The notes under the pieces: generated by a model
Database searches by the model: none
Told to the model about the DNA's origin: nothing
What the model saw: the letters and a program-made list of their open reading frames with translations, nothing else
DNA from: a virus
Taxonomy: Duplodnaviria; Heunggongvirae; Uroviricota; Caudoviricetes
Length of the DNA stretch: 14,009 nucleotides
IMG/VR virus record: IMGVR_UViG_2660237951_000011
Span: 1-14,009 of that record
Reading direction: 5' to 3' (one strand)
In this document: positions 103 to 14,009 of the stretch, piece by piece
Position numbering within the stretch: position 1 is the first letter of the stretch
How the letters are laid out: each line of letters opens with the position of its first letter
Translations under genes and position numbers: made by a program

Positions 103-116
103 GCTATTTCTCCATA

Positions 117-2054
117 TCAGGCGGCTGCACCCGCCTTTTGATTTGCACATAATTCAGGAAGATTTGCTTCTACCAGCGCACGAGCGAACGGCGGCGGTAC
201 TGCGTTACCACAGCGCGCTACCTGCTTGTCTTTGGCGTAACGATTGCCGCGATAGTCCTGATCGATAACGTAGCCGTCAGGGAAGCCCTGCGCCTTATAA
301 AGCTCATGCGGTTGCAGCATGCGCATTCCGATATCGACGATCTGGTACTTAACCCCCTCGATCGTCACCAGCCATTCATCCTCGCTATCACCGCAGTAGG
401 TTTCGAGGAATGTCCGGACCTCGCCAACGTGCTGGCCACCAGCGGTAATCGTCGGCATAGGTGTATCCATGGTCTGACCGTCGCGGCAGGTTCCGCGCAG
501 CTTCACCAGGTGCGACGCAACTACCGCGTGGTGATCAACAGTAGTGACTGAGTGGGCAGGCTCATCCATACCAACACCCGGCCCCGTGTAATTCCCACCA
601 TAGTGCTTCGCCAGGAACGCGCTCACCGTTGCAAACTTATTACCACCAGCAGTGACCGTGCCGAGCGGGTTATTCAGTTGAAGAACACGCGGTTCTTGCC
701 CTGGGCGTTCGCCGTACCCCATCTGGATCAGTGTTGGAGTTACCAGCTGCGACTTACCGCCACCACCTGCAGTAATCGTCGCACTCGGTTCGTCAGCCCT
801 GTGCCCAACACTGGCTCCAAACTGGCGGGCGATGACCGGCGCAACCACGCACGCGCGGGACTGCTTGAGGATTGTATGAGCGGGTTTATCCAGCGGGCGC
901 GGCTTTGCCTGGTACTCACTGCCGCCATTGCCAGCCAGGAACGGTGTCAGGGCGGCCTCAACTACGCCAAGCGCATGCCCATTCCCGCCCGGGCGCGCCG
1001 ACGTACCAGCGGTGACAGTTGGTACCGGCTCGGTCACTGGCTGCCCGGTGGCCCCGGTGCGGAATTTAGTAAGATGCGGTACCGCCAGTGCGTAGCCATG
1101 CTTTTTAGTGATGGTCTGCAATGGCTCTAACAACGATTGCCCGCGGAAACAGTCATAACCTCCTTTCGTCGTGGTGTGGTTACACTTCACGATGAAAGGT
1201 GATGCGCTTTCGATAACAAAGCGCTGGATGCCGCGCGCGATACGTTTGAGCGTATTTTCCGCCAGCGGCTTTTTGCGGTCGAAGATGGACCGGGCCGGGA
1301 TATTCCAGTCAATGCACTCCGCCGCGGTACGCCATGGCGCCAGCTTGCCGCTTTGTACTTCCAGTGATTTTGGATCCCCATGAGTCGCTTCAGGCCAATG
1401 AATCTTGCGGCCGTCACAGCGCGTGACCATGAAGAAACGCTTTCTGATCGTCGGCGCGCCGTAGTCACATGCGCGCAGCTCCCGATAATCAACCTCATAA
1501 CCAAGCCCGGCGATCAGCTGTTGCGCCTGCTGGCCGTGCGGCTCAATGGCAAGGAATTCACAAACCTCAGCCAGCGCAGGGTGATTCGCCGCGATCCCCG
1601 TCGACAGCATGCCGACAAATGCCTCGAATGTTTCGCCAGCACGCTCAGGATCTGGGCGTAATTCTTCATCCAGCAGCGGGCCCCATGTCTTAAACTCTTC
1701 GACGTTCTCCAGCATCATGACGCGGGGACGTACTGCCAGCGCCCAGCGCAGGACAATCCACGCCAGCCCGCGAATCTCTTTCTTAACCGGCTTAGCGCCC
1801 TTCGCCTTGGAAAAGTGGCGGCAGTCAGGGCTAAACCAGGCCAGACCGACAGGTTTACCGCTGGTGGCTGCGCTTGGGTCAACGTCAAACACCGACTCGC
1901 AATAATGCAGCGTGTCAGGGTGATTCGTCTTATGCATCGCAATAGCGTTTTCGTCGTGGTTGATAGCGATATCCACGCTACGCCCGATCGCCAGTTCAAT
2001 GCCGGTACTCGCGCCGCCGCCACCAGCAAAGTTATCAACGATAATTTCACGCAT
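117..2054 (-). CDS. DNA (cytosine-5)-methyltransferase, 645 aa, with greatly expanded variable (target-recognition) region
   Basis: Start moved to internal ATG at 2054 (MREIIVDNF), which overlaps the upstream gene's stop. C5-MTase motifs read in order: I FAGGGGASTG; IV SPDCRHFSKAKG (P-C catalytic Cys); VI MMLENVEEF; VIII ACDYGAPTIRKRFFMV; IX MLQPHELYKAQGFPDGY; X GNAVPPPFARAL. About 370 aa lie between motifs VIII and IX. Confidence 0.85.
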   Translation of the reverse strand: MREIIVDNFAGGGGASTGIELAIGRSVDIAINHDENAIAMHKTNHPDTLHYCESVFDVDPSAATSGKPVGLAWFSPDCRHFSKAKGAKPVKKEIRGLAWIVLRWALAVRPRVMMLENVEEFKTWGPLLDEELRPDPERAGETFEAFVGMLSTGIAANHPALAEVCEFLAIEPHGQQAQQLIAGLGYEVDYRELRACDYGAPTIRKRFFMVTRCDGRKIHWPEATHGDPKSLEVQSGKLAPWRTAAECIDWNIPARSIFDRKKPLAENTLKRIARGIQRFVIESASPFIVKCNHTTTKGGYDCFRGQSLLEPLQTITKKHGYALAVPHLTKFRTGATGQPVTEPVPTVTAGTSARPGGNGHALGVVEAALTPFLAGNGGSEYQAKPRPLDKPAHTILKQSRACVVAPVIARQFGASVGHRADEPSATITAGGGGKSQLVTPTLIQMGYGERPGQEPRVLQLNNPLGTVTAGGNKFATVSAFLAKHYGGNYTGPGVGMDEPAHSVTTVDHHAVVASHLVKLRGTCRDGQTMDTPMPTITAGGQHVGEVRTFLETYCGDSEDEWLVTIEGVKYQIVDIGMRMLQPHELYKAQGFPDGYVIDQDYRGNRYAKDKQVARCGNAVPPPFARALVEANLPELCANQKAGAAA

Positions 2055-3381
2055 TGACGGCCCCCTGCATGCTGTTGAAGAGACCACCAGCGGTCGTGAT
2101 AATTTCACTCGTCGGCATACGTTCGAGCCACAGCTGGTTGATATTGGCTTTCAGCTTGTTCTGCTGCGAAACAGGTAGAGCGTCAGCCCCTTCAATCTGG
2201 TTAAACACCAGTCCAACCTCAAGAGGCCAAACGCGCGATTCGTTTAACGCCTTGTCCTTTGATTCCTGCGTCTCACGGACATGGGCGCGGATCCCCCGAA
2301 TATTTGACCATTTGGCTTTATCCAGGCTTTCCATGGTCGCGATGAATTCACTGTGGTTAATGCCGTATTCTTTCGCAGACTCAACGGCAACCGTGCGTAA
2401 CCGCTCTGACATGTCTTGTTTCACGTCATCGCTATCAAAGGGCAATGTTTCCAGCCATGCATTAACACCCACCAGGATGCTCTCGCTGATCAGCTTTTTC
2501 GCTCTGTCGATCGTCAGCGGTGAAACATTGGTAAATTCAGGGTTTTCCAGAGAGTCGGCAGCCCAGGTATGACCAAACTTTGACTCGCTGAAGGTGTACT
2601 CGTCTTTCTTGCCGAACGCCGCGACAACACAGGCCCAAGCCTCTACACCGCTGGTTTCCAGAATGGCTTTTTGGGTTAATGGCAGTTCTGCCTCTGATTT
2701 CTCCGGCACTACCTCAGCGTCCAGCTCCGGCGCCGCATCAGTTTGCGTTCTTCCCACGGCAAATTGGGCCAGCGACATCGCAGCACGGCCTTTGGCCTCC
2801 AGGTCGGTGCGGTTGATGTAACTGAAACGCTCACCCCGCCATGTTTTGTCGAAGACCACGATAGCGCCAGCAAAAAATGCGCTGGTGGGCTGCTGCTTTT
2901 CGTCTTTCGGCACGAACCATGTAGGAAGATCGAAACCAATTCGGCCACGGATGAATGTGACGTGATCTGCCTCTACCGGCCACCACGTTTCACTCGTCGC
3001 AGACTTAATGAGAAAAACGTACCGACCACCCTTTTCTCGCATGGCCATAGCGTGGTTAATGATGTGGGTCATTCCGGTAACGGCCTGCTTGTCGTGGTAC
3101 TGAGAGCGGCTGTAAGGCGGGTTGCCAAACCCGGCACCACCGAGTTCTGCCAGCCGCTCTGACCAATCCTGCATCAGGGCATTATCTTCAGCCGTGTACC
3201 ATGCTGGGCACTTCGCGTTGCTGTCGTCGGCAAAAAGGTCCAACACCAGAGGGCCGAACATCGCATTGATCCCCCAAAACAACAGATCCGGAGTGCGCCA
3301 TTGATCACCGACCTCTTTCAACTCGTGTGCTGGTTTTGAACGGAGTTCAGCTAGTGCACGGCAGTATTTATTTTCCATCAT
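2047..3381 (-). CDS. Phage Dam-family N6-adenine DNA methyltransferase with ~250-aa C-terminal extension of unknown function
   Basis: N-terminal region DQWRTPDLLFW...LDLFADDSNAKCPAWYT...GFGNPPYSRS carries the NPPY amino-methyltransferase motif in a phage-Dam-like context. Start ATG overlaps the upstream stop (ATGA at 3378-3381). Residues ~200-444 show no motif I recognise. Confidence 0.8.
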   Translation of the reverse strand: MMENKYCRALAELRSKPAHELKEVGDQWRTPDLLFWGINAMFGPLVLDLFADDSNAKCPAWYTAEDNALMQDWSERLAELGGAGFGNPPYSRSQYHDKQAVTGMTHIINHAMAMREKGGRYVFLIKSATSETWWPVEADHVTFIRGRIGFDLPTWFVPKDEKQQPTSAFFAGAIVVFDKTWRGERFSYINRTDLEAKGRAAMSLAQFAVGRTQTDAAPELDAEVVPEKSEAELPLTQKAILETSGVEAWACVVAAFGKKDEYTFSESKFGHTWAADSLENPEFTNVSPLTIDRAKKLISESILVGVNAWLETLPFDSDDVKQDMSERLRTVAVESAKEYGINHSEFIATMESLDKAKWSNIRGIRAHVRETQESKDKALNESRVWPLEVGLVFNQIEGADALPVSQQNKLKANINQLWLERMPTSEIITTAGGLFNSMQGAVNA

Positions 3382-4232
3382 CCTCTGAACCCCTCTGGAA
3401 TCTTGCTATCAACCGGACCGAACTTCATCGGGTCATGTTTCTTTTCACCCCAGCTGTCACGCGGTGGCCGCCCCTTCTTGTCCCAGCGGATCCCGCTTTG
3501 CAGATAACCTTCAAATTTTTTCGGACCGAAGAGCGTTTCAGGACGCATGTACTGGTACTGCACGTCATTGCCGTTCCAGTGCTCATGCTTAAGGTCGATC
3601 ACCAGCTGTAAGTCGCTAACGGTGTAACCTTCACGCAGACGAGCACGGATGTTTTCCAGAGAAGTTTTTGATTTTTGGTATCGTGAGCCACTAACCAGGT
3701 TCAGATGATTCAGAACCAGGATGGCGTTATCGGTGATCATCACTTCAGGGTCTGGTTGCGGCGCAACCGGACAAGAAGGTTTTTTAACTGATGGATCAGT
3801 AGTTGTATTTACTGACGGATCCCCCCCAGATTCTGACGGGTGAAAACCGCCTTTTTCATCGTTTTTTGATGCCTCAGATTTTGACGCGTCGGTTTTTGAG
3901 GCATCAGATTTTGATGCGTCAGAATCTGACAGGTGAGAAAAGGCAGCAGCCTGCAATTTAGCAACATTGAGCTGGTAAACGTTCGATGCATTTCGGTTGC
4001 CTTTACGGCGCTGCTGGCGGGTTAACCAACCATCTTTTTCCAGCTGAGATATGGCTGTACGAACCGTGCTCTCACCAGCACCAATCTGGCGCGCGATGGT
4101 AGCGATGGAAGGCCAGCTAACCCCTTCATCACTGCTGAAGTCTGCCAGACGCGCCATGATGGCAACGCTGGATAGCTTCATGCCAGAAGCGGCACAAGCA
4201 TCCCAAACGTAACCCGTTAATTTAGTGCTCAT
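3378..4232 (-). CDS. Phage replication initiator (lambda O-like): N-terminal winged-HTH, low-complexity SDASK-repeat linker, conserved phage replication C-terminal domain
   Basis: 284-aa ORF with RBS AAGGA 5 nt upstream of the ATG at 4232. N-terminus (SVAIMARLADFSSDEGVSWPSIATIARQIGAGESTVRTAISQLEKDGWL) is HTH-like. Central linker DSDASKSDASKTDASKSEASKND is encoded by tandem 15-bp DNA repeats. C-terminal region resembles phage replication-protein C-terminal domains. The family assignment is from memory, not a search. Confidence 0.65.
   Translation of the reverse strand: MSTKLTGYVWDACAASGMKLSSVAIMARLADFSSDEGVSWPSIATIARQIGAGESTVRTAISQLEKDGWLTRQQRRKGNRNASNVYQLNVAKLQAAAFSHLSDSDASKSDASKTDASKSEASKNDEKGGFHPSESGGDPSVNTTTDPSVKKPSCPVAPQPDPEVMITDNAILVLNHLNLVSGSRYQKSKTSLENIRARLREGYTVSDLQLVIDLKHEHWNGNDVQYQYMRPETLFGPKKFEGYLQSGIRWDKKGRPPRDSWGEKKHDPMKFGPVDSKIPEGFRG
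3864..3938. repeat. Four to five tandem 15-bp repeats (consensus TTTTGAnGCnTCAGA) inside the O-like gene; candidate origin iterons
   Basis: Direct reading gives ttttgatgcctcaga / ttttgacgcgtcggt / ttttgaggcatcaga / ttttgatgcgtcaga / atctgacaggtgaga. Each has a near-palindromic 10-bp core TGAnGCnTCA. Position mirrors lambda ori, which sits in the O linker. Confidence 0.5.
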
Positions 4233-4401
4233 GGTCGTCCTTTAACTCTGTAAACTTGCGCTTGAATTGTTCGAGCGGGCTGAAACATTCGTGGTCATAT
4301 CCATCCCGCAGGTAGATAACTCGTTGAGTCTCTGGCTCCCACCTGATAACCCGAACGGGGATCCCTCTGTGGTCTTTGAACCTTCGGTTAACTTCGCGCA
4401 T
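4222..4401 (-). CDS. Hypothetical small protein (59 aa), below the ORF-track length cutoff
   Basis: Minus-strand ATG at 4401 with AGGAAGG about 10 nt upstream; stop overlaps the O-like start by 11 nt. Translation MREVNRRFKDHRGIPVRVIRWEPETQRVIYLRDGYDHECFSPLEQFKRKFTELKDDHEH is protein-like in composition. Several rare Arg codons and competition with an overlapping 126-aa frame lower confidence. Confidence 0.3.
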   Translation of the reverse strand: MREVNRRFKDHRGIPVRVIRWEPETQRVIYLRDGYDHECFSPLEQFKRKFTELKDDHEH

Positions 4402-4573
4402 AAGCGTTTCGCCTTCCTGTAGTAAACCCCCACAATTGCGACCGCCCGACTGTGGTTACATGGCACCCAGCGGTTTGCTATTCTGCGTTCATACCGAAAC
4501 AACGGAGCGCCCGGTACCGGGATCATCCTGAGTTGCGGCAAACGGTTAAAAGCCGTTAAACTGGTCATGCGGA

Positions 4574-5122
4574 TTACTTCTCCATACAAGATTTGTCTGC
4601 CACGACGCCCGGAGCTGCACACTCGCGGGCGTCACCTTTTTCCGGCGCACAAAACACACGGAAAAGCAGCGTCAAATGTTCCTGCCACTTAGCCATCACC
4701 TGATAGCTGTTCTCTTCAATCTGGGCGCGTTCCTGAGCATCAATAACGCCGTCAGCGGTAGCTTTGCGAACGTATTGCGAATGCCTGCCGATCCACTCCA
4801 CTGACTCCATAAGACGCTGGTTGATGTCACCGTTCTCTATTTCTTCAACGTCAGCCAATGGCACGAAAACACCGTTCGAGTGACGTGCAATAGCGTTCGC
4901 TATGTGGTTTGAACCACCAGCACGTTGAAGCACCATCGCCCAACCGAGCGGGAAGATCTGATCGCCATCGGTACGCAGCCGGTTAAACAGCGCGTTCTCG
5001 GTCACACCCAACCACTCAGCAGCTTCTGAATATCCGCCAGGCAGCTCGGTGATCGTTTTTTTGATTGCGGCCACCAGCCAGGCTGGCTGCTTATCTACTT
5101 TCCATTCAGGTTCTATACCCAC
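4574..5122 (-). CDS. Putative CII-like early regulatory protein, 182 aa, GTG start
   Basis: ORF-track start (GTG at 5206) would overlap cro by 62 nt. An in-frame GTG at 5122 sits 8 nt after a strong AAGGGAGG placed right after the cro stop, so I take 5122 as the start. Sits at the cII position (after cro, before replication genes). Contains an HTH-like stretch (GGYSEAAEWLGVTENALFNRL). Family call is tentative. Confidence 0.5.
   Translation of the reverse strand: MGIEPEWKVDKQPAWLVAAIKKTITELPGGYSEAAEWLGVTENALFNRLRTDGDQIFPLGWAMVLQRAGGSNHIANAIARHSNGVFVPLADVEEIENGDINQRLMESVEWIGRHSQYVRKATADGVIDAQERAQIEENSYQVMAKWQEHLTLLFRVFCAPEKGDARECAAPGVVADKSCMEK
4604..4641 (+). terminator. Intrinsic terminator on + strand, antisense to the 3' end of the CII-like gene (OOP-like arrangement)
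   Basis: 8-bp stem 4604-4611 / 4626-4633 with 7 G:C pairs, 14-nt loop, then ACC and TTTTT (4637-4641). Confidence 0.5.
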
Positions 5123-5144
5123 GGCTAGGTCCTCCCTTCTGTGG

Positions 5145-5360
5145 TTATTTCTGATCGCTTGGCGATGTATTCTTGCCATAACGTTCTGGGTTAAATTCCA
5201 GTTCACCAGCAGTTCGATACGCAGCTTCAGCAGCTCGTCCTTTTGGGATTAAGCGTCCGGGGCGGTTACGCCACTGGTAAACGGCCTCACTGGTGATGCC
5301 AAAAAATTCGGCAACTTTTTCAGTGCTGCCGAAATGTTGTTCAATCTCGTCGGTTGTCAT
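5145..5360 (-). CDS. cro: Cro-like HTH repressor (71 aa)
   Basis: Small basic HTH protein (FGSTEKVAEFFGITSEAVYQWRN) transcribed divergently from the CI repressor gene. AGGAGG lies 4 nt upstream of the ATG. A sigma70-like promoter TTGACC-17-TAATAT is on the minus strand at 5416..5388. Confidence 0.7.
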   Translation of the reverse strand: MTTDEIEQHFGSTEKVAEFFGITSEAVYQWRNRPGRLIPKGRAAEAAYRTAGELEFNPERYGKNTSPSDQK

Positions 5361-5373
5361 GAAGCCTCCTTAG

Positions 5374-5437
5374 CTAAGTTTGGTTAGATATTAATAACCA
5401 ATCTAACTTTGGTCAATAAAAACTAAGATTACTTAGT
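5374..5437. promoter_or_regulatory. OR-like operator/promoter region between cro and cI
   Basis: Three related boxes: CTAAGTTTGGTTAG (5374-5387), CTAACTTTGGTCAA (5403-5416) and perfect palindrome ACTAAGATTACTTAGT (5422-5437). The first two overlap the start site and -35 of the cro promoter. Confidence 0.6.
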
Positions 5438-5459
5438 CTTTTTTAAACTTGGTGCTTTC

Positions 5460-6086
5460 ATGGAAACGGTTGGTCAGCGCATTAAAGCCCTACGTAGGGT
5501 TACAAGAACCTCTCAAAAAGAACTGGGTAAGTTCTGCGGGGTTAGTGACGTAGCGGTGGGTTATTGGGAAAAGGATGTGAATATCCCAAACGGTGAATCG
5601 CTGGTTAAGCTGGCGAAATTCTTTAACACATCAATAGATTACATTCTTTACGGCACTGAATTTGAAGGCACCCTCATAACTAAAATGAGGCGTGTCCCGG
5701 TGATTTCATGGGTTCAAGCTGGGCAGTTCACGGAATGTAAAGCCGCTGATTTGTTCAGTGATGTCGATAAATGGGTTGAAACATCACTTCGCATTGGGGA
5801 TAACTCGTTCGCTTTAGAGGTCAAAGGGGATTCAATGACCAATCCAAATGGCCTCCCAACAATCCCTGAAGGGGCAACCGTTATTGTTGATCCAGATGCC
5901 GAACCCCTTCATGGCAAGATTGTGGTTGCGCGTCTTGATGGCACTAATGAAGCGACTGTTAAAAAACTTGTCATTGATGGCCCACAAAAATTTTTAGTGC
6001 CACTAAATCCTCGCTACCCCAACATCCCGATCAATGGTAACTGCCTCATTATTGGCGTTGTTAAAGGCGTTCAGTACGAACTCTAA
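5460..6086 (+). CDS. cI: CI-type prophage repressor, N-terminal HTH plus C-terminal S24 (LexA-like) autocleaving peptidase domain
   Basis: N-terminal HTH (TSQKELGKFCGVSDVAVGYWE). Ala-Gly cleavage site in VQAGQF. Ser nucleophile in GDSM and the Lys of the dyad in ATVKKL. Divergent from cro across an operator region. Confidence 0.9.
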   Translation: METVGQRIKALRRVTRTSQKELGKFCGVSDVAVGYWEKDVNIPNGESLVKLAKFFNTSIDYILYGTEFEGTLITKMRRVPVISWVQAGQFTECKAADLFSDVDKWVETSLRIGDNSFALEVKGDSMTNPNGLPTIPEGATVIVDPDAEPLHGKIVVARLDGTNEATVKKLVIDGPQKFLVPLNPRYPNIPINGNCLIIGVVKGVQYEL

Positions 6087-6104
6087 TCCCTTCCCACTCT
6101 TCCT

Positions 6105-6169
6105 CTAAGCATCAAGCTAAGTTTAGTTTGATGTTTTCACTTGACCAGAAAACTAAGTTAAGTTAGATT
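6105..6169 (+). promoter_or_regulatory. OL/pL-like promoter and operators downstream of cI
   Basis: TTGACC (6141-6146), 17-bp spacer, TAGATT (6164-6169). The spacer and -10 overlap the near-palindrome ACTAAGTTAAGTTAGAT. Further CTAAG boxes at 6105-6109 and 6117-6130 belong to the same half-site family as the OR boxes. Confidence 0.5.
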
Positions 6170-6528
6170 TTTTTCTGTCGGCACCAAACCACCGCGCCTG
6201 ATGTGGTTAAAAGCAGGCCAAAGCAATAAGACGTGTTCCCTGTTCTGGCTGCTCACTTTCCCCTTGAGGGTGACAGCCAGCTTTTTAAGGGCACAACAGG
6301 CGAGAGCATTGCTGATTATCGGACTGCGTGAGACGCGACGCGGTAAAGCAGGTAAACAGTGCTCTCACCGTTGTGGTAATGCGGCTCTGCGCACGTGACG
6401 AGGCCAACAAGTTTTTATTTCAACTTTTGAAATGAATACGTTTCTTGTGGTGTAGCGTCGCCGGTTCTGGCCGGTCCGGCAGGTGGAGGCACCACCGCCA
6501 CAACAACATCATTGCTGTGTGTAGTCTT

Positions 6529-6557
6529 TGCCCATCACATCGGTGGGCACCTTTTTT
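6529..6557 (+). terminator. Intrinsic terminator-like hairpin inside the leader upstream of the first accessory gene
   Basis: 8-bp stem TGCCCATC / GGTGGGCA (one G:U pair), 5-nt loop, then CC and TTTTTT (6552-6557). Confidence 0.45.
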
Positions 6558-6713
6558 ACACAAGAGACAAGGGCATCACCGGGCGACGGGCTCATTCCCC
6601 AATCCACCCGGGCAAGAGGATAGCGATTGCAGTCGCCGACAAATGCAGGTGCCCTTCTCTGTTGTGTATGGAGAAAGTTCGGCGGTGGCAGCCGCCATAA
6701 CGAGGGTAAAACC

Positions 6714-7085
6714 ATGAGTAATGACCGCATGACCGTAGTGCCCGACTTTTTGGGCGAGCTGGATGCCGGTGTGTTCATGAACAAAATCGCGGCAGCACTT
6801 AACACCACCGCGCTTGGCGTTCTGAACAACGGCAACAAAGGCAAAGTAGTCCTCACCTTTGATTTTGAGCGTATGGGTAATTCCGTTGAAGAGAAGCGCG
6901 TCAAGATCAAGCACAAGCTGAACTACAGCACCCCAACTCCGCGCGGTAAAGCCTCCGAAGAGGACACAACCGAAACCCCTATGTGGGTTAACAAAGGCGG
7001 GAAGCTAACCATCCTCCAGGAGGATCAGGGGCAACTGTTCGGGATCACCGGCGCGGTGGACGGAAAGCTTAAAGCGGCTCAGTGA
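6714..7085 (+). CDS. Hypothetical protein (123 aa), first gene of the accessory operon; YfdP-like by position
   Basis: ATG at 6714 with GAGGG 7 nt upstream. The ORF-track start at 6627 has no RBS. Typical codon usage. YfdP assignment is by gene order only, not sequence recall. Confidence 0.6.
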   Translation: MSNDRMTVVPDFLGELDAGVFMNKIAAALNTTALGVLNNGNKGKVVLTFDFERMGNSVEEKRVKIKHKLNYSTPTPRGKASEEDTTETPMWVNKGGKLTILQEDQGQLFGITGAVDGKLKAAQ

Positions 7086-7141
7086 TCCGCAACAACAAAC
7101 TCACTGATACCACTTTGATCATCAGTTAATAAGGAATTTTT

Positions 7142-7969
7142 ATGTCTCAGTTAGACAGCGGCACCTTCAAGCAGGTCAAAGACCTGGTCCTTTCCGGTTA
7201 TCACCTGAATGATATTCATGGCCTGGCTTGCCCGACCGCATTACTGCCAGAGGGTACTGGCGTTGAAAGCCTTGAGCGCTTTTCTCTGGAACGTTTCCGC
7301 TTTCGTGGCGCAATGACCACAACCAGTATTGACGACTTCGCACGTTATTCTAAAGGTTATGCCAGCGCCAGCGAGCCAGCTCGTTGCTTCATTGACGCTG
7401 ACAACATGACCGCCCGTTCAGTGTTCAACATCGGCACCCTGGATAACCCCGGTCACGCCGATAACGTTGCTTCAATCACTCTGAAGAAAACCGCCCCGTT
7501 TCGCGCGCTACTACAGATCGATGGTCAGCGTCTGAAACAAAAGCAAATCGCTGAATGGCTGGAAGACTGGAGTGATTACCTGCTGGCGTTTGACGCTGAT
7601 GGTAAGACGATGGAGATTTCTCAGGCGGCTCAGGCCGTGCGTCGTATCACTATCCAACAAGCAACCCAGCAGGATCATGAAACTGGTGATTTCGCTGGTA
7701 AAAAATCACTCATGCAAAGCGTCGAAGCAAGCAGCAAAGACGTAATGCCGGTAGCGTTCGAATTCAAATGTGTGCCGTATGAAGGTCTGGGCGAACGCCG
7801 CTTTAGCTTGCGTAACAGCCTGCTGACCAGCGATGAACCCTGCTTTGTTCTGCGCATCGTCCAACTTGAAGCCCAGGAAGAAGCAATCGCCAACGAATTC
7901 CGCGATTTACTGATCAGCAAGTTCGACGGTGAATCAGTGGAAACTTTCATCGGTAACTTTAAAGCCTAA
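7142..7969 (+). CDS. Hypothetical protein (275 aa); YfdQ/DUF2303-like by position
   Basis: AGGA 7 nt upstream of ATG. No recognisable catalytic motif. Lies immediately upstream of the YfdR-like gene, as in the yfdP-yfdQ-yfdR order I recall for the CPS-53/KplE1 prophage of E. coli K-12. Confidence 0.6.
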   Translation: MSQLDSGTFKQVKDLVLSGYHLNDIHGLACPTALLPEGTGVESLERFSLERFRFRGAMTTTSIDDFARYSKGYASASEPARCFIDADNMTARSVFNIGTLDNPGHADNVASITLKKTAPFRALLQIDGQRLKQKQIAEWLEDWSDYLLAFDADGKTMEISQAAQAVRRITIQQATQQDHETGDFAGKKSLMQSVEASSKDVMPVAFEFKCVPYEGLGERRFSLRNSLLTSDEPCFVLRIVQLEAQEEAIANEFRDLLISKFDGESVETFIGNFKA

Positions 7970-7981
7970 TTGCTCTGCATT

Positions 7982-8008
7982 AAATCCCCGGCGCCGCGGG
8001 GATTTATT
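7982..8008 (+). terminator. Hairpin / possible terminator or attenuator after the YfdQ-like gene
   Basis: Inverted repeat AAATCCCCG-gcgccg-CGGGGATTT (9-bp stem), followed by ATT. Located 13 nt after the stop codon. Confidence 0.4.
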
Positions 8009-8097
8009 GAAGCGTAATTCCATTAATTATCGCCATCCGGCGAGGGATTCGTGCAACCAAAATCTGCGCGGTGCAGCGCGCCAATATGGAGAAAACC

Positions 8098-8637
8098 ATG
8101 AGCTACATTCAGACATTATCCGGCAAACACTTTAATTACCTCGATATCCAACAGGACGATATCGTCATCGAGGATATTGCTACTGCGCTGTCTCATATCT
8201 GCCGTTTTGCTGGGCATCTTCCTGAGTTTTACAGCGTCGGCCAGCATAGCGTTTTAACCAGCCATCTCGTTCCGCAGGAGTTTGCCTTAGAAGCACTGCT
8301 TCATGATGCCGCCGAAGCCTACCTGCAAGATATTCCCTCACCGCTTAAGCGCCTGTTACCGGATTACCAGGTGATCGAAGCTCGCGTAGACGCTGCTATT
8401 CGCCAGAAATTTGGCCTACCGACGGAGCAACACCCAACAGTGAAATATGCCGATCTGGTGATGCTCGCCAGCGAACGCCGCGATTTTGAGATTGACGAAG
8501 GTTCCGTGTGGCCATGCCTCGATGGCGTTGTCCCGACGGACCTATTCATCATCAATCCAGTTCGTCCAGGCCAGTCATACGGCATGTTCATAAATCGCTT
8601 TAATGAGTTGATGGAGCAGCGTCAATGCGCCGCATGA
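8098..8637 (+). CDS. yfdR: HD-domain phosphohydrolase, YfdR-like 5'-deoxynucleotidase
   Basis: HD motif visible: H-x(n)-HD in LSHICRFAGH...YSVGQHSVLTS...EALLHDAAEAYLQDIP. Strong end-to-end resemblance to my recollection of E. coli YfdR. Start at 8098 (GGAG 6 nt upstream), not the track start at 8071. Confidence 0.7.
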   Translation: MSYIQTLSGKHFNYLDIQQDDIVIEDIATALSHICRFAGHLPEFYSVGQHSVLTSHLVPQEFALEALLHDAAEAYLQDIPSPLKRLLPDYQVIEARVDAAIRQKFGLPTEQHPTVKYADLVMLASERRDFEIDEGSVWPCLDGVVPTDLFIINPVRPGQSYGMFINRFNELMEQRQCAA

Positions 8638-8801
8638 AGGTAAAAGAACTCGTGGCGGAGGCGTTTGCCTCCGTGGCTGAATTGCCACCAAAGCATGCAT
8701 CGCTTATGCGCGAAGTCGCTACCAGGCTTGAAGCTACGTTCGCAGCATTAACCGAATCATTGGCGCAACTGGAACAGGAACGTAAAGGTAAAACGCAATG
8801 A
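8634..8801 (+). CDS. Hypothetical small protein (55 aa), below ORF-track cutoff
   Basis: ATG overlaps the yfdR-like stop (ATGA at 8634-8637) and its own stop overlaps the next start (ATGA at 8798-8801). Translation MKVKELVAEAFASVAELPPKHASLMREVATRLEATFAALTESLAQLEQERKGKTQ is helical-looking. Confidence 0.45.
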   Translation: MKVKELVAEAFASVAELPPKHASLMREVATRLEATFAALTESLAQLEQERKGKTQ

Positions 8802-9052
8802 CCGTATTTGAATATCTCCAGGGCCACCCGAACGCCACCAGCGGTGAAATCGCAAGGGCGATGGGTAAAAAGACGCCAGCCGTAGCCAGCGCACTATCTC
8901 AGCTTTATGCAACAGGGAGAATTGTTAAGTCTGGCGCACGCGGTGGGATACCGACATACCGCGTCAATGATCTGCCGTTTGGATGCAGCAATAACTTAAC
9001 GCTGATATTTAACCAGCTTCTGCGAAACGTCCGCAAAGGAGCAGCCCAATGA
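8798..9052 (+). CDS. Hypothetical small protein, possible winged-helix DNA-binding fold (84 aa)
   Basis: Translationally coupled on both sides. The stretch SGEIARAMGKKTPAVASALSQLYATGRIV looks HTH-like. Confidence 0.55.
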   Translation: MTVFEYLQGHPNATSGEIARAMGKKTPAVASALSQLYATGRIVKSGARGGIPTYRVNDLPFGCSNNLTLIFNQLLRNVRKGAAQ

Positions 9053-9366
9053 GCAAATTTACGGCATTACCAGTAGAACGCGACCAATACGGCTACTGGA
9101 CTCACCCCGTCTATGAGCAATTTTGCGATGGTCGTGAATTTATCTCACCTGATGAGTTCAACGCCTGGCTGGATAAAAACGGCCTCGAATGGACGGTAGT
9201 TTACCGGGATGAAGAAGACATCGATCCTGAAGTTGATGGTTACGATATTTCAGCCTGGCAGCCAGAATCGCCAGCCGGTGAAGGTTGGTTTGTCGGTTCA
9301 ATTCACAACACCGAAGATGGCGCGGTATGCATCTGGTTACGTAACGTTGAAGGCGGTGCAGCATGA
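9049..9366 (+). CDS. Hypothetical protein (105 aa)
   Basis: ATGA overlaps at both ends. Acidic, Trp-rich. No family recognised. Confidence 0.6.
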   Translation: MSKFTALPVERDQYGYWTHPVYEQFCDGREFISPDEFNAWLDKNGLEWTVVYRDEEDIDPEVDGYDISAWQPESPAGEGWFVGSIHNTEDGAVCIWLRNVEGGAA

Positions 9367-10121
9367 CAGTCCATACACTGAAGCAATGCCGCCCGGACCA
9401 AGAAGAAACCGAGTATTTCTGGAAGTTGTTTCATGCGGCACAACGGAATGACGCTCGCTGGCACGGTAGTGAAATCAGCATTATCGCCGATGAACTATCC
9501 CGGACGGATTTAGATCGTAATCAAAAACTGTTTCTTCTCCGTGCCTGGCAAGTGCTGGTAGACGACAAAGGTGGATTCGGGCGCTTGATGGGTGCCTTTG
9601 ATACTTACGTCTACAACATGCAGGACCCTGATGATGACTGCGTAGCCTGGAAGCCTGAACTGGCTAAGCTGCTACAGGATGGCAATCTGTTTGATGTTGT
9701 GCTGACGGCATATCAGGAGGCCTGCCATGAGGGGATCGTTAATTGGGAGGCAGCGGTATCTCTTTCTGAGGAAAACGTAGAACTGAAGCGCAAACTCTAC
9801 GCAGCAGAGAATCAAATAGCAGAACTGGAGGCGCGGACGTTCAATCCTGCAATTCTAGATGTGATAGCAGAGCGCCAGCGGCAGAAAGCCGTTGAGGGCT
9901 GGACGTCTGAGCATGACGACAAATACGGAAAATCGCAGTTGTTGTGGGCATCCTCATGCTACGTCCTGAACACCATCCAGCCGTTTAACCGCATTCCGAT
10001 GGACTGGCCGTGGGCACCCGAATGGTGGAAGCCGACAGGCCCGCGCCGTGACCTGGTGAAAGCTGGCGCGCTTATTCTGGCTGAAATTGAACGCATAGAC
10101 CGCCAGGAGGCAGCACAATGA
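9363..10121 (+). CDS. Hypothetical protein with central coiled-coil (252 aa); possibly Ea22-related
   Basis: ATGA coupling at both ends. Coiled-coil segment EENVELKRKLYAAENQIAELEAR. Trp-rich C-terminus. Confidence 0.6.
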   Translation: MTVHTLKQCRPDQEETEYFWKLFHAAQRNDARWHGSEISIIADELSRTDLDRNQKLFLLRAWQVLVDDKGGFGRLMGAFDTYVYNMQDPDDDCVAWKPELAKLLQDGNLFDVVLTAYQEACHEGIVNWEAAVSLSEENVELKRKLYAAENQIAELEARTFNPAILDVIAERQRQKAVEGWTSEHDDKYGKSQLLWASSCYVLNTIQPFNRIPMDWPWAPEWWKPTGPRRDLVKAGALILAEIERIDRQEAAQ

Positions 10122-10771
10122 GCAACATCAACAAACAGGCGCTGCGTGAAACGGCGGATGCAGCAAACAAAGCCTCGTGGGGCCGTTGGGAATCATATCA
10201 TCCACACAAAGGCGCGCGGGGCCACGAGGTCAAGGTAGGGGTAAAAGCAATCGCCCAGCACTGCCTCAAGGTTGATGCAGAATTCATCGCCGCATCCAAC
10301 CCCGCCACTGTGCTGGCGCTGCTGGATGAGCTGGAAACTAAAGACAAGCGTAATGCGGAGCTGGAAGACCTTCTTGAAGCTGAAATTAAGTCATGGATGC
10401 AACGGTACGATAGTGCAAATAACCGAAGAGAAGCCGCAGAGAAGCGCAACGCAAAATTACAAAGCGAGAATGCATACATCCGCAACCGGTTCAAAGAACT
10501 GGACCTATTAATCGGGAAAAACATTCTGGTCATGCAGGCTGCGATTATCGAATGGCAGGCAACTGGCGACGCTAAGAGCGGACTGGCATGGATTTATAAC
10601 ACACTGTTTGGCCCAGGCGAATTGCCGGACGAATCTGAGAAAGATGCTCAGGCCTACTTTGACCGCAAATATGCACCGATTGACGAAGAGCTTATGGCGC
10701 TTCACAAGTGGTTTTGGGAACAAAGTGAAGCCGAACGTGCCGCCGCTGGCATTGGCGTGAAGGGGGAGTGA
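10118..10771 (+). CDS. Ead/Ea22-like protein (217 aa)
   Basis: N-terminus MSNINKQALRE... and the ATVLALLDELE segment match my recollection of lambda Ea22 (MSEINSQALRE..., ...VLELLDERE). Central coiled-coil. AGGAGG RBS. Assignment from memory, not a search. Confidence 0.6.
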   Translation: MSNINKQALRETADAANKASWGRWESYHPHKGARGHEVKVGVKAIAQHCLKVDAEFIAASNPATVLALLDELETKDKRNAELEDLLEAEIKSWMQRYDSANNRREAAEKRNAKLQSENAYIRNRFKELDLLIGKNILVMQAAIIEWQATGDAKSGLAWIYNTLFGPGELPDESEKDAQAYFDRKYAPIDEELMALHKWFWEQSEAERAAAGIGVKGE

Positions 10772-10772
10772 G

Positions 10773-11045
10773 ATGAAAAAATACCTCAGTAATTTAGCGA
10801 GCATGTTGCAGGGTATTGCAGGTGTAATTTCAGACGGCGAACGAGTGCAAACTGAGTGTCCTCCGCATTTAAAATCTGCGCTACTTGAGGCGTCTCATGC
10901 GCTGGATGGTCAATCAGTCAGGGTTAATTACCCACCAAATGGGAAACCGGAAATCGTAAATGCTCGCGGCAAGCATCGGCAGTTAACTTTCCGGGAACGG
11001 ATTGCTATTCGCCTTCTCGGCGGCAGAACGGAGATTAGGCCATGA
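10773..11045 (+). CDS. Hypothetical protein (90 aa)
   Basis: GGGGGAG RBS 4 nt upstream. Stop overlaps the next start (ATGA at 11042-11045). Confidence 0.55.
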   Translation: MKKYLSNLASMLQGIAGVISDGERVQTECPPHLKSALLEASHALDGQSVRVNYPPNGKPEIVNARGKHRQLTFRERIAIRLLGGRTEIRP

Positions 11046-11578
11046 CAACTAACCACCCGGCGCACGGTCCTGTATCAATAGATCGCCTGCACCAGATACG
11101 CGAAGTACTCAGCAAAGCAGCAGCACAAAGCGACGGCGGTAATCTCGGCTACGCAATGGCTGATGCTGTCAAGGTGATTGATAAGGCTATTGCTGCGTTT
11201 AATGCGGAGCTTTATGTTCCTACCGTTCAGTGCTGGTCATGCAGAGAGGTTATTGAAGTTTCCGCAGTAGGTGACTGTGATGGTTATTGCCCGAAATGCG
11301 ACTCGCCAATTGATCTCGATGAAGAGCCATACGATGCCGCCATACTTCAGGCTGGCAACTCTCCGGTGATTCCGGATGGTTGGAAACTGGTACCGATTGT
11401 GCCGACGGAGAAGATGGTTATCGAAGGCTTCGAGTCGGAGCCAGACGAATTCTTCAGTAAATCTGAAGTGTGGGAGGCGTATCAGAAAATGAGTGGCTGC
11501 GAACAAGCGGCGCATCGGGCCAAGTTATGCTGGGCAGCGATGATCTCAGCAGCACCACAACAGGAGGTGAAGCTGTGA
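11042..11578 (+). CDS. Hypothetical zinc-ribbon protein (178 aa)
   Basis: Two CxxC pairs, CWSCREV...CPKCDSP, spaced like a zinc ribbon. Translationally coupled on both sides. Confidence 0.6.
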   Translation: MTTNHPAHGPVSIDRLHQIREVLSKAAAQSDGGNLGYAMADAVKVIDKAIAAFNAELYVPTVQCWSCREVIEVSAVGDCDGYCPKCDSPIDLDEEPYDAAILQAGNSPVIPDGWKLVPIVPTEKMVIEGFESEPDEFFSKSEVWEAYQKMSGCEQAAHRAKLCWAAMISAAPQQEVKL

Positions 11579-11814
11579 CTAAATCAGAATTCCTCCAGAA
11601 GGTAGCGGTGCTGGCCGGTGAATGCCATAAGTTGGCCTGTGAGCTGGACATAGGCGATGAACGAATAGAGATGTTCGAGATTTATGAAGTGCTTCGCCGA
11701 ATCCAGCGGAGTGGTGCAGCCGGTGAAATGCTGGCTGCAACAAACCCTTTACTATCCCCTGGAATACCTGAGGACACTGAATGGGTAAATTTCCATAAAG
11801 AGGATCATGCCTGA
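11575..11814 (+). CDS. Hypothetical protein (79 aa), GTG start
   Basis: GTG at 11575 overlaps the upstream stop (GTGA) and is preceded by AGGAGG at 7-nt spacing. The ORF-track start at 11470 lies inside the upstream gene and has no RBS. Confidence 0.5.
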   Translation: MTKSEFLQKVAVLAGECHKLACELDIGDERIEMFEIYEVLRRIQRSGAAGEMLAATNPLLSPGIPEDTEWVNFHKEDHA

Positions 11815-11990
11815 TGCCTAAGACAATCATCATAACCTTAGAAATTGATGTTCCGGAACACGCTACCGATAGCGACATATCAGATTGGGTAGACGTCGAG
11901 TACGGGCAGTGTGGTGGACAAAAATTAGATAACCCCTGCCGTGGCGATGCCACCGAAGTAATAAACCATTCATGGAAATTTGAGAGCTAA
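11814..11990 (+). CDS. Hypothetical small protein (58 aa), below ORF-track cutoff
   Basis: ATG overlaps the upstream stop (TGATG). Translation MPKTIIITLEIDVPEHATDSDISDWVDVEYGQCGGQKLDNPCRGDATEVINHSWKFES. Fills an otherwise unexplained 180-bp gap in a tightly packed operon. Confidence 0.45.
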   Translation: MPKTIIITLEIDVPEHATDSDISDWVDVEYGQCGGQKLDNPCRGDATEVINHSWKFES

Positions 11991-11992
11991 AG

Positions 11993-12565
11993 ATGAACGA
12001 CTTAATGATTGACCTCGAATCAATGGGGAAAAAGCCAAACGCGCCGATCGTCTCAGTTGGTGCTGTCTTTTTTAACCCTCAAACAGGTGAACTTGGCCAA
12101 GAATTCTATACAGCCGTCTCGCTTGAAAGCTCAATGGATCAAGGCGCGGTACCGGATGGAGATACGATTCTTTGGTGGCTAAAACAAAGCCCTGAAGCGC
12201 GCTCAGCTATCTGCGTTGATGATGCGATGCCTATCACTGATGCACTGTCGGAACTTAGCCATTTCATTCACCGGCATGCATATAATCTCAAATACATGAA
12301 GGTCTGGGGTAACGGGGCCACCTTTGACAATGTGATTTTGCGCGGAGCTTACGAACGCGCCGGACGCATTTGCCCGTGGGAATTTTGGAACGATCATGAT
12401 GTACGAACGATTGTTACCCTCGGTCGCAGTGTTGGTTTCGATCCGAAGCGTGACATGCCTTTCATTGGCGATGTTCACAACGCCCTGGCTGATGCGCGCC
12501 ATCAGGCAAAATATGTGTCAGCAATTTGGCAGAAAATTATCCCTGCCACCAGCACCAACGAGTAA
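11993..12565 (+). CDS. DnaQ-like (DEDDh) 3'-5' exonuclease
   Basis: N-terminal MIDLESMG (Asp-x-Glu) and C-terminal HNALADARH (His/Asp) match the acidic-residue pattern of DEDDh exonucleases. Lies directly before xis-int. Confidence 0.7.
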   Translation: MNDLMIDLESMGKKPNAPIVSVGAVFFNPQTGELGQEFYTAVSLESSMDQGAVPDGDTILWWLKQSPEARSAICVDDAMPITDALSELSHFIHRHAYNLKYMKVWGNGATFDNVILRGAYERAGRICPWEFWNDHDVRTIVTLGRSVGFDPKRDMPFIGDVHNALADARHQAKYVSAIWQKIIPATSTNE

Positions 12566-12609
12566 ACCACACAGCCCGGGTGCAGCCGGGCTTTATGGAG
12601 AAGGAAACC

Positions 12610-12819
12610 ATGGCAAAGCTAATGAAAGCGAGTCTCTGGAGTAAACGCGAATTTACCAAAGACTCCATTCCTGACAACCGTACAATAAAACGTTGGGTCG
12701 AAAACGGATTACTCATGGGAAGGATTGTAGATGGTTCAGTTTTTGTCTATGAAACCGAAAAGTGGGGAGTTGACTCAATTGTTAATCAGGCGGTACGTCA
12801 GTTAATAATTGAGGGTTGA
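12610..12819 (+). CDS. xis: Excisionase-like recombination directionality factor (69 aa)
   Basis: Start moved to ATG at 12610 (GGAGAAGGAAA RBS). Pattern W-x(n)-P-x(n)-RWVENGLL...G...V.E parallels lambda Xis. Stop lies 2 nt before the integrase ATG. Confidence 0.6.
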   Translation: MAKLMKASLWSKREFTKDSIPDNRTIKRWVENGLLMGRIVDGSVFVYETEKWGVDSIVNQAVRQLIIEG

Positions 12820-12821
12820 CC

Positions 12822-14009
12822 ATGGCAGCAAGGCCACGAAAAAAAGAATACCGCCACCTTCCTGATTATCTTTTTTTTGATAAAGATCGTGGCGTGTATA
12901 AGTTCACGCTTATAACTGGGAAAAAGAAAACTCTAGGTTCGGATCGAGTAATGGCTATCGCCATCGCCCGAGAATATAACCTGAGGATGCGCCCTGAAAA
13001 TACACCATCGATAGATTCATTAATTCGGGAATCGGGAGGGCTGAATGGTGAAGCCCACCCGTTTTCTGAACATGTTGATCGCATTATGGAGAGAGCTATC
13101 AAAGATGAGCAACCGTCTAAAAGCACACTTGACGATTGGAATAATGATGCCATCAGGGTTAAAGAATTTTTTAATAACATACCCGCATGCGACATTGAGC
13201 TTGAGCACGTAAATGCCTACATACGAAATTACCATTCTGAATCGTCGGCCAATGTTCAGAACCGAAAAGTTAGCTTCCTGAAAAAGCTATTCTCTTATGC
13301 TGTTGATGAATCGCTAATGATGGATAACCCTGCAACACGGAAAAAAATGCGGCGTGTCGATAAAAAGGTCCGCCGGCGACTTACTTTGGAGCAGTTCCTG
13401 GCCATACATGCAGCTGCTGAACCCTGGCTGAAGACAGCAATGGACCTTGCATTACAAACTACTCAAGCACGCCTGGAAGTATCCCGGATCCGGTACTCGA
13501 TCAAGGAACCTCAAGAAGGAGTTTGCGGCTGTGTATGGTTCGATCAGGAAGAGGCTGGCATATTCGGAACGCTTTACATTCATCGGCAAAAAGTGCAACA
13601 CAAAGAGGCCTCTCACGTTGCAATTCCGATCGGCAGGGCCCTGAAAGAGATCATCGACAATAGCAGAGACAATGTGGCCAGTCCTTATGTTGTTCACCGG
13701 CTTTTGGAAAAGAGAAGCAATCCGATAAGCAAGGAAGTTAACCACCCAACACAGGTGGCCCCTGATTATTTGAGCAGAGCATTTTCAGAGCTGCGGGACC
13801 GGATAGGTATAGCGGCAGAATTACCTATCAAAGAAAGGCCAACTTTCCACGAGATTAGAGCGCTGGCGGCTCATATTTTCGAAAGACAAGGTATCGATCC
13901 GCAGGCAAGGATGGCCCATAGTGATGCAAAATCGACAAAAATTTATACCCAGAACCATGTTGAATGGGTAGAAGTTCCTCATGCTGAAATTGTCTTTAAA
14001 GCCGGGTGA
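12822..14009 (+). CDS. int: Lambda-family tyrosine integrase
   Basis: Alignable by eye to lambda Int: N-terminal arm-binding region (RKKEYRHLPDYLFFDKDRGVYKF vs lambda RRDLPPNLYIRNNGYYCY), and catalytic-region R...H-x-x-R...Y (HEIRALAAH, KIYTQNH). ATG at 12822 with GAGGG RBS; the track uses TTG at 12816. Stop is the last codon of the window. Confidence 0.9.
   Translation: MAARPRKKEYRHLPDYLFFDKDRGVYKFTLITGKKKTLGSDRVMAIAIAREYNLRMRPENTPSIDSLIRESGGLNGEAHPFSEHVDRIMERAIKDEQPSKSTLDDWNNDAIRVKEFFNNIPACDIELEHVNAYIRNYHSESSANVQNRKVSFLKKLFSYAVDESLMMDNPATRKKMRRVDKKVRRRLTLEQFLAIHAAAEPWLKTAMDLALQTTQARLEVSRIRYSIKEPQEGVCGCVWFDQEEAGIFGTLYIHRQKVQHKEASHVAIPIGRALKEIIDNSRDNVASPYVVHRLLEKRSNPISKEVNHPTQVAPDYLSRAFSELRDRIGIAAELPIKERPTFHEIRALAAHIFERQGIDPQARMAHSDAKSTKIYTQNHVEWVEVPHAEIVFKAG

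Follow-up and report, generated by a model that had tools for sequence, protein, structure and literature searches.

The 14,009-nt stretch of DNA analysed here (IMG/VR record IMGVR_UViG_2660237951_000011, positions 1 to 14,009; referred to below as the window) comes from a lambdoid prophage of the ST64B / e14 / CPS-53 / Eeyore type and forms its early region, in which three genes, ant, a yfdR-like gene and xis, are preceded by a common hairpin module. The canonical module consists of a GC stem closed by the invariant loop GUGCAG, 0-5 nt and a Shine-Dalgarno (SD) box, UAUGGAGAA, after which comes the start codon. The RNA structure of the stem is under selection and, whichever mechanism holds, the motif is a well-supported structured RNA element new to Rfam, in which no family matched any module at the gathering threshold; a description of the motif was not found in the literature searched either. 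A longer form of the hairpin lies at the ymfL/ymfM junction. Because its promoter geometry and hairpin are conserved with ECS003 of E. coli K-12, this copy is very probably the gene of an antisense small RNA (sRNA). The complementarity between this RNA and the canonical modules makes it plausible, at slightly less than an even chance, that the modules are its targets in trans, in the manner of the sar and c4 RNAs, and that they also serve as mosaic junctions.

Hairpin modules at early gene starts

The initial annotation had located three hairpins at 6681-6696, 8066-8081 and 12573-12592, where they are indeed found, and had assigned them to one module shared by three genes. This grouping stands for the yfdR-like gene and xis, whose copies are canonical, and fails for the 6681 copy, which is atypical in that the box lies on the 5′ side, the stem is fixed and the loop is variable. 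Two copies had been overlooked, namely the minus-strand ant copy at 136-119 and the long-form copy at 4633-4566 (Table 1). The ant hairpin lies within the last codons of a C5-methyltransferase open reading frame (ORF), the TGA stop of which occupies 119-117; the identity of ant itself is an annotation carried over from the closest genome (locus L001). The yfdR-like gene encodes a 5′-deoxynucleotidase, and the distance from hairpin to ATG is 16 nt in this copy and 17 nt at xis. A covariance model recovers exactly three canonical copies in the window, at ant (138..108, 41.9 bits), the yfdR-like gene (42.6 bits) and xis (41.8 bits), as well as three in Eeyore and three in ST64B.

Table 1. Positions of the hairpin modules, the predicted antisense sRNA gene and the yfdP-type leader in the window
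Feature	Position	Strand	Elements
ant module	108..136	-	hairpin AGGCGG/GTGCAG/CCGCCT 136-119; box TATGGAGAA 116-108; ATG 102-100
yfdR-like module	8066..8100	+	hairpin GCGCG/GTGCAG/CGCGC 8066-8081; box TATGGAGAA 8085-8093; ATG 8098
xis module	12573..12612	+	hairpin AGCCCGG/GTGCAG/CCGGGCT 12573-12592; box TATGGAGAA 12594-12602; ATG 12610
long-form module, ymfL/ymfM junction	4566..4633	-	hairpin GACGCCCG-c-GAG-uGUGCAG-CUC-CGGGCGUC 4633-4604; box TATGGAGAA 4586-4578; ATG of ymfM homologue 4568-4566
predicted antisense sRNA gene, orthologue of E. coli K-12 e14 ECS003	4533..4643	+	-35 TTGCGG 4533-4538; -10 TAAACT 4557-4562; 5′ end near 4566; anti-SD UUCUCCAUA 4578-4586; terminator hairpin 4604-4633, apical loop CUGCACA; U-tract 4634-4643, tail ACCUUUUUCC
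yfdP-type leader (look-alike, not a canonical member)	6623..6716	+	weak hairpin GCGA/TTGCAG/TCGC 6623-6636; box TATGGAGAA 6667-6675; hairpin GGCGG/TGGCAG/CCGCC 6681-6696, then 17 nt; own SD GAGGG 6702-6706; ATG 6714

The loop hexamer had been described as ordinary and its hairpin context as outstanding, and the counts agree with this. KKGCAG alone occurs 39 times in the window for 38.1 expected, which is chance level, whereas KKGCAG hairpins whose stem is perfect over 5 bp or more number 4 against a mean of 0.04 and a maximum of 2 in 1000 dinucleotide shuffles, and those with a GTGCAG loop number 3 against 0.006. The inclusion of an SD-AAACC-ATG string in the module had to be abandoned: AAACCATG is enriched in the window (3 found for 0.81 expected), AAACC is not kept in homologues, and AAACCATG was rejected as a part of the motif, being unconserved there. 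The conserved partner of the hairpin is instead TATGGAGAA, which contains the SD GGAG and is aligned 1-3 nt 3′ of the stem in the canonical copies of the window. A-rich tracts are found 5′ of the hairpins.

The motif recurs at gene starts and junctions of related phages. When viral contigs were scanned for GTGCAG followed after 5-10 nt by TATGGAGAA, GTGCAG was enclosed by a perfect stem of 4 bp or more in 55 of the 137 matches, with a start codon following in all 55, while the same scan with the control loop ATGCAG yielded a stem in 0 of 120 matches; the edges of the module are moreover the sites of homology breakpoints, as discussed below. Circularity was avoided by anchoring a second set of loci on proteins rather than on the motif. 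GTGCAG was present within 60 nt 5′ of the start in all 80 yfdR-like and all 80 xis loci (160 of 160), enclosed by differing stems (GCGCG, AGCGCT, GCGCT, CGCG and TGGCGCG for the yfdR-like gene; the five stems AGCCCGG, GCCCGG, AACCGG, ACCGG and CCCGG for xis).

Across all loci, the module occurs with 25 stem sequences in front of at least 12 unrelated gene families across Enterobacterales. In 35 distinct variants, from instances picked for at least 3 bp next to the loop, 79% of the helix cells are paired compared with 46% after shuffling (0 of 500 shuffles reach 79%), and the covariation score is 0.70 against 0.16, falling to at most 0.15 when the 3′ partners are slid. Each of the inner four stem pairs shows 8-17 double substitutions; G·U versus A·C mismatches at the stem ends are uninformative as to the transcribed strand. 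In a scan of one genome per species, the matches listed include Citrobacter, Enterobacter, Kluyvera, Buttiauxella, Mangrovibacter, Phytobacter, Silvania, Scandinavium, Superficieibacter, Pseudocitrobacter, Entomohabitans and Mixta. Each complete phage holds five copies, which are confined to early operons and always lie in the sense orientation, with canonical stems of 4-7 bp and a tight hairpin-to-SD spacing of 0-5 nt.

Other small structures were observed close to these modules. Directly 5′ of the ATGA-coupled start at 9363, the plus strand carries GGCGGTGCAGC (9352-9365), which corresponds to the 5′ arm and loop of a module lacking the 3′ arm and the box and recurs in the same arrangement upstream of sb34 in ST64B (locus L122); it may be a half-module or a recombination scar. 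The spacer between yfdQ and the yfdR-like gene (7981-8043, plus strand) holds two extra hairpins, one with a perfect, terminator-like 10-bp stem directly after the yfdQ stop (7981-8006) and one, TCGCC/ATCC/GGCGA (8030-8043), of which the stem is kept in homologues by compensatory change (TCACC/GGTGA) and the loop is variable.

The ymfM antisense RNA and its complementarity to the modules

The long-form copy was found by its box, which lies 17 nt from a hairpin located inside the 3′ end of the ymfL-like ORF and precedes an ORF homologous to YmfM (40% identity, E 4e-15). In 131 of 132 instances retrieved with a search pattern in which the loop was left free, the loop reads UGUGCAG and the 30-nt hairpin is invariant, including at five synonymous third positions, between variable flanks. 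In E. coli K-12, the long-form copy stands at ymfL/ymfM of prophage e14. Shinhara et al. (2011, PMC3175480) identified ECS003 there as their most abundant cis-antisense sRNA candidate with a sigma-70 promoter and observed it on a northern blot as an RNA of about 70 nt. The published sequence starts at the complement of the ymfM start codon and contains an anti-box, UUUCUCCAC, the exact reverse complement of the hairpin and a U-rich tail; it is thus antisense to the e14 ymfM ribosome-binding site, with 71 nt between its 5′ end and the far side of the hairpin.

The locus at 4533-4643 is orthologous to ECS003, with the same hairpin, anti-SD and place opposite the ymfM ribosome-binding site, and its predicted RNA would start opposite the ymfM start codon and measure roughly 75 nt. 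The arrangement of a -35 (TTGCGR), an 18-nt spacer and a -10 (TAAAYT) is kept in the window, e14, ST64B, Eeyore, LLS, phiNP and Kp4866-6, in phages whose spacer sequences and YmfM N-termini diverge, and the hairpin and U-tract are likewise kept across diverged phages. The ymfM-type copy therefore presents what defines a cis-antisense sRNA, i.e., a promoter on the opposite strand, coverage of the SD and start codon and a terminator of its own, the RNA itself having been observed in K-12 only. Repetition of target-like sequences at other genes, conservation and a role in trans are not described in the ECS003 paper (PMC3175480).

The apical loop of the sRNA, CUGCAC(A), exactly matches the canonical loop GUGCAG by complementarity, and its anti-box, in the single-stranded 5′ part, is complementary to the box over 9 nt at ant, 9 nt at the yfdR-like gene, 10 nt at xis and 11 nt at the yfdP-leader box. 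In silico, UUCUCCAUA pairs with UAUGGAGAA at ant, the yfdR-like gene and xis. The order of the two segments fits antiparallel pairing, since loop precedes box in the target and anti-box precedes loop in the sRNA. Both the ymfM-type element and canonical modules are present in 86 loci and in all 5 complete phages examined. The sole variant of the sRNA-element loop, UAUGCAG, belongs to L429 of Buttiauxella gaviniae and to L588, a diverged metagenome contig, and in both prophages the yfdR-type module has the loop AUGCAG, i.e., G is changed to A in both partners. This module loop was seen in 0 of the 160 protein-anchored loci and 0 of the 120 control matches; a third module in L429 keeps GUGCAG and would pair with the altered sRNA through a G·U wobble. 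In addition, the contiguous identity around GGAGAA between the ymfM translation initiation region (TIR) and canonical TIRs averages 9.33 nt within genomes and 8.36 +/- 0.16 nt between them, the within-genome value being reached in 0 of 5000 permutations by a test that ignores phage relatedness, which weakens its support for trans control.

Action in trans would also fit the e14 xisE leader (L364, 5079-5108, minus strand), where GTGGAGAAACTAAC is directly followed by the hairpin CGACC/GTGCAG/GGTCG. This leader has 16 contiguous nt in common with the ymfM TIR and is therefore perfectly complementary to the 5′ part of ECS003.

The motif, its covariation, orientation, breakpoints and complementarity were observed here, and the existence of the sRNA was shown in K-12, whereas its action in trans and the repression of translation are inferred. 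It is possible, although we hold this only tentatively, that one conserved sRNA of the ECS003 family controls a regulon of TIRs in trans by a kissing loop combined with anti-SD pairing, the target cassettes doubling as joints for the exchange of early-gene modules between temperate phages of Enterobacterales. The regulon, put forward with the same reserve, would comprise the antirepressor, the excisionase, the cell-division inhibitor, the deoxynucleoside monophosphate (dNMP) phosphatase and further early genes. The sRNA would block ribosome binding at ymfM in cis and at every canonical module in trans, where a 6-bp loop-loop kiss (CUGCAC with GUGCAG) would be added to 9-11 bp between anti-SD and SD. 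In the lysogen, antirepressor, excisionase and cell-division inhibitor would thereby stay silent until the sRNA is titrated by strong early transcription. According to this proposal, the need of one RNA to match several targets would freeze loop and box and leave the stems to drift through compensatory changes, and mosaic segments would be joined at the module because it is shared.

If true, such a mechanism would represent an RNA-level safety catch in a large and poorly studied family of enterobacterial prophages, which includes ST64B of Salmonella, e14 and CPS-53 of E. coli K-12 and relatives in Citrobacter, Klebsiella, Enterobacter, Kluyvera, Buttiauxella and Mixta. The genes placed under this catch (ant, xis, ymfM) would be exactly those whose leaky expression would destabilise lysogeny or harm the host. 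The catch would also provide a function for ECS003, an abundant uncharacterised sRNA of K-12, and account for the constancy of a 6-nt loop and a 9-nt SD box across gene contexts, tying regulatory constraint to position at mosaic junctions.

Several observations weigh against control in trans by this sRNA. The evidence on ECS003 amounts to its detection in a cryptic K-12 prophage, the complementarity in trans is short (6 + 9-11 nt), and the energies computed with RNAduplex are modest, those of xis, ant and the yfdP leader lying only around the first percentile of the window background and that of the yfdR-like gene being weaker, at -20.5 kcal/mol. In context, the minimum-free-energy fold at the yfdR-like gene favours a pairing other than the hexaloop hairpin. 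In two loci (L001 and L091), the sRNA-side box GUGGAGAA (GUGG) faces the target AUGGAGAA (AUGG) with a terminal mismatch. The double change of the sRNA and target loops probably reflects a single evolutionary event. Finally, the yfdP-type and xisE-type leaders present box and hairpin in an order opposite to that of the sRNA, hence the sRNA-target model does not cover both in a simple way.

The proposed pairing can be compared with known systems. In the kissing-loop antisense control of plasmids (RNA I/RNA II of ColE1, CopA/CopT of R1), GC-rich stems present fully complementary loops of 6-7 nt for rapid recognition; these systems differ from the window in having a single cis-encoded target and in controlling plasmid replication. 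The sar RNA of P22, reportedly described by Liao, Wu and Susskind in 1987, is said to be a small antisense RNA directed against the ant ribosome-binding site. Like the predicted ymfM sRNA, it is a short constitutive antisense RNA with its start inside the first part of a dangerous early gene, the SD and start codon of which it covers, and its end at a hairpin between cistrons, and, as in the proposed regulon, an antirepressor gene is among the genes regulated. It shares no sequence similarity with the window sRNA, and its known action is limited to its own locus, whereas the loop and SD box are here repeated before unrelated genes, suggesting targets in trans.

The c4 RNA of P1/P7 and the CI RNA of P4 (Rfam C4 clan) resemble the proposed system in that one small RNA uses loops to recognise repeated, bipartite short targets, one part covering a ribosome-binding site, and thereby controls the antirepressor. 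Repeated bipartite complementary targets with one part over the ribosome-binding site were found in the window as well, albeit in silico only. In contrast to c4, which is processed from a sense transcript, the RNA predicted in the window would be a genuine antisense RNA, transcribed from a promoter of its own and ending at its own terminator, and its targets would be hairpin loops at no fewer than four gene starts (>=4) in both prophage arms. The Rfam C4 family itself was not found in the window at E values up to 10, the only related match being c4-a1b1 (16.9 bits, 3114-3149).

Two features of the ymfM region were noted in addition. The ymfM-homologous ORF (4568-4245, minus strand) overlaps a DUF4222 ORF (4401-4222, minus strand) by about 157 nt in another frame, and the RefSeq annotation of the closest genome (L001) contains only DUF4222 and not the ymfM-homologous ORF. 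Several unrelated module-preceded genes have in common a start of the form M-x-(Q/S/N)-L encoded by CAGTT(T)AA (100-88 and 4566-4553 of the window, minus strand). In ymfM, it complements the antisense -10 element, of which it may be a remnant in the other genes, unless it is a weak antisense promoter there.

Mosaic junctions and alternative explanations

The initial annotation suggested that the hairpins mark module boundaries, and the comparison of the window with about 360 related loci by blastn supports this idea. Homology begins at 8065/8066, the first base of the yfdR-like hairpin, in 23 loci and at 12571-12576 in 21 loci. In 10 loci it stops at 12602, the last base of the xis box; stops at 135 (ant copy, minus strand) and at 4645 (ymfM copy) are seen in 6 loci each. 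The same hairpin and gene are also found joined to unrelated upstream flanks. The modules thus lie at mosaic junctions, as do PeSL-type cassettes and boundary sequences. Short conserved boundary sequences were proposed for lambdoid phages (Clark 2001, as cited in PMC3029335), and PeSL cassettes are established in T4-type phages (PMC2839356, PMC4122927); the breakpoints would fit both. The likeness to these elements (PMC2839356, PMC4122927, PMC3029335) lies in short conserved intergenic stem-loop motifs at the borders of shuffled early modules. PeSLs differ in carrying an early promoter alongside their terminator-like stem-loop and in being conserved over the whole sequence, whereas the modules of the window are without a promoter, with loop and SD fixed and stems covarying.

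The location of the breakpoints, exactly at the 5′ edge of the hairpin and the 3′ edge of the box, would also be expected of a recombination linker, i.e., a short boundary sequence for homologous or relaxed (Red/Rad52-type) joining in which the loop has no regulatory role. The concept is established for boundary sequences (PMC3029335, citing Clark 2001) and PeSLs (PMC2839356, PMC4122927). Such edge junctions are nevertheless expected for any conserved functional cassette. Homology for recombination cannot be the selected trait, because only 6 + 9 nt, too little homology, are shared between families whose stems differ and covary, while the compensatory stem changes and the strict sense orientation beside an SD indicate selection on RNA structure; we consider a linker improbable. 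The main alternative to control in trans, itself rather unlikely, is a purely cis-acting initiation element, in which the hairpin would insulate the SD and AUG from upstream RNA, protect the 5′ end after RNase E processing or act as operator for an RNA-binding protein (cf. Com of Mu and RegA of T4). Initiation would then be context-independent or coordinated at junctions without ATGA coupling, and the likeness to the ymfM antisense RNA would stem from shared ancestry. Such an element agrees with the fact that the module travels with the downstream gene at a tight hairpin-to-SD spacing, with the non-overlapping junctions (gaps of 44 and 128 nt) at which the modules of the pL operon lie, with the A-rich tracts and with the conserved loop on variable stems, as is typical of a factor that reads the loop sequence specifically. 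However, no candidate protein was seen to co-vary with the motif, the 56-nt gap between yfdP and yfdQ is without a module, and the conservation of the box beyond the needs of an SD, the matched G-to-A change and the within-genome similarity of the boxes would be left unexplained.

It is very improbable that each canonical module makes its own cis-antisense RNA as sar does, from a backward promoter in the first codons and with the hairpin as terminator. This is true of the ymfM-type copy, and the antisense strand has a partial T-tract at the ant and yfdR copies of the window and a promoter-like site inside xis (12677-12650). However, the candidate -10 and -35 hexamers on the antisense strand show the variation of ordinary synonymous sites in 29 xis alleles and 36 yfdR alleles, and only 24 of 146 distinct modules have, on the antisense strand, five or more T within the 8 nt that follow the hairpin. 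Because conserved antisense promoters are absent inside xis and the yfdR-like gene, the canonical copies probably do not make antisense RNAs of their own, and intrinsic termination on the antisense strand was rejected as a general function owing to the inconsistent T-tracts.

GC-rich stems, and conserved loops that recall boxB, could likewise point to another standard signal (a sense terminator, a nut site, an RNase III site) or to chance, which is barely credible given that chance is ruled out by the shuffles, that Rfam gives no match and that five sites per phage lie directly at gene starts. A sense-strand intrinsic terminator was discarded, with a T-tract (at least 5 T in 8 nt) in 3 of the 146 distinct modules and tails resembling UAUGGAG, and neither terminator calls nor promoter-like sites were obtained on the sense strand at the window copies. 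A lambda-type nut site is contradicted by the absence of a boxA (CGCTCTTTA-like) near any copy, by a hexaloop in place of a GNRA-like pentaloop and by the five copies per phage. The initial annotation had also considered RNA processing or protein-binding sites that control internal re-initiation. RNase III cleavage is unlikely because the canonical stems of 4-7 bp are too short for an enzyme that needs about 20 bp or more of (interrupted) double-stranded RNA, and the evidence favours complementarity to an antisense sRNA, a reading absent from that annotation.

Other candidates were tried and rejected. Coding constraint does not account for the conservation of the loop, which is equal in intergenic (xis, yfdR) and ORF-internal (ant, ymfM) copies. 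By inspection, a small ORF starting from the AUG inside UAUGGAGAA is inconsistent in frame and stop across variants, and no complement of the loop that could form a pseudoknot was found in the downstream sequence. A hairpin between SD and start codon (AUGG...CCAU) needs a C at position -1 and is hence not conserved. A lagging-strand, primase-type signal in single-stranded DNA was set aside as the orientation of the modules flips with transcription and not obviously with the replication gene, the ymfM copy being on the wrong side. The resemblance to an ops/RfaH-like non-template hairpin is limited to GGCGG stems.

The yfdP leader and other features of the window

The 6681 copy is a related-looking leader outside the canonical family. 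It reaches only 14.9 bits (E 0.2) with the covariance model, and GTGCAG is present in 0 of 78 yfdP-anchored loci. In these loci, the stem is constant (GGCGG/CCGCC or TGGCGGT/ACCGCCA) and the loop varies (TGGCAG, TTGCAG, TTGCGA, TCGCTA, TGCG, CGCT, AACG and AGCG, among others). The box lies 5′ of the hairpin, has no start codon of its own and, by inspection, has 11 nt in common with the ymfM TIR. Between 6655 and 6678 (plus strand), this box, UAUGGAGAA, is predicted to pair with an anti-box-like sequence upstream, UUCUCUGU, forming a small hairpin just 5′ of the GGCGG hairpin.

The window is 99.5% identical to a prophage of E. coli MSB1_9D across most of its right half. To the left of about 5400, the minus strand encodes cro-like, ymfL-like and ymfM-like genes, DUF4222, a replication gene, two methyltransferases and ant; to the right, the plus strand encodes a LexA-type repressor and, after a 630-nt leader, yfdP-like, yfdQ and yfdR-like genes, followed by eleven small ORFs, an exonuclease, xis and int. 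As the initial annotation had remarked, most of the other operon genes are joined by 4-nt overlaps.

Operator-like palindromes were noted, ACTAAG ATTA CTTAGT at 5422-5437 and CATCAA...TTGATG near 6110-6133, close to promoter-like sites at 5416-5388 (minus strand) and 6141-6169 (plus strand); by their appearance, the two regions, 5380-5437 and 6100-6170, hold the operators and divergent early promoters of the immunity region. In addition, the pL leader contains an RprA-like sRNA at 6421-6558 (plus strand), which scores 41.5 bits with the Rfam RprA model for a gathering score of 70. Its 3′ half (AUUGCUGUGUGUAGUCUUUGCCC, the terminator hairpin at 6529-6549 and a U-run) is near-identical to the RprA consensus and its 5′ half differs, hence this RNA may be a prophage-encoded mimic of the host sRNA RprA.

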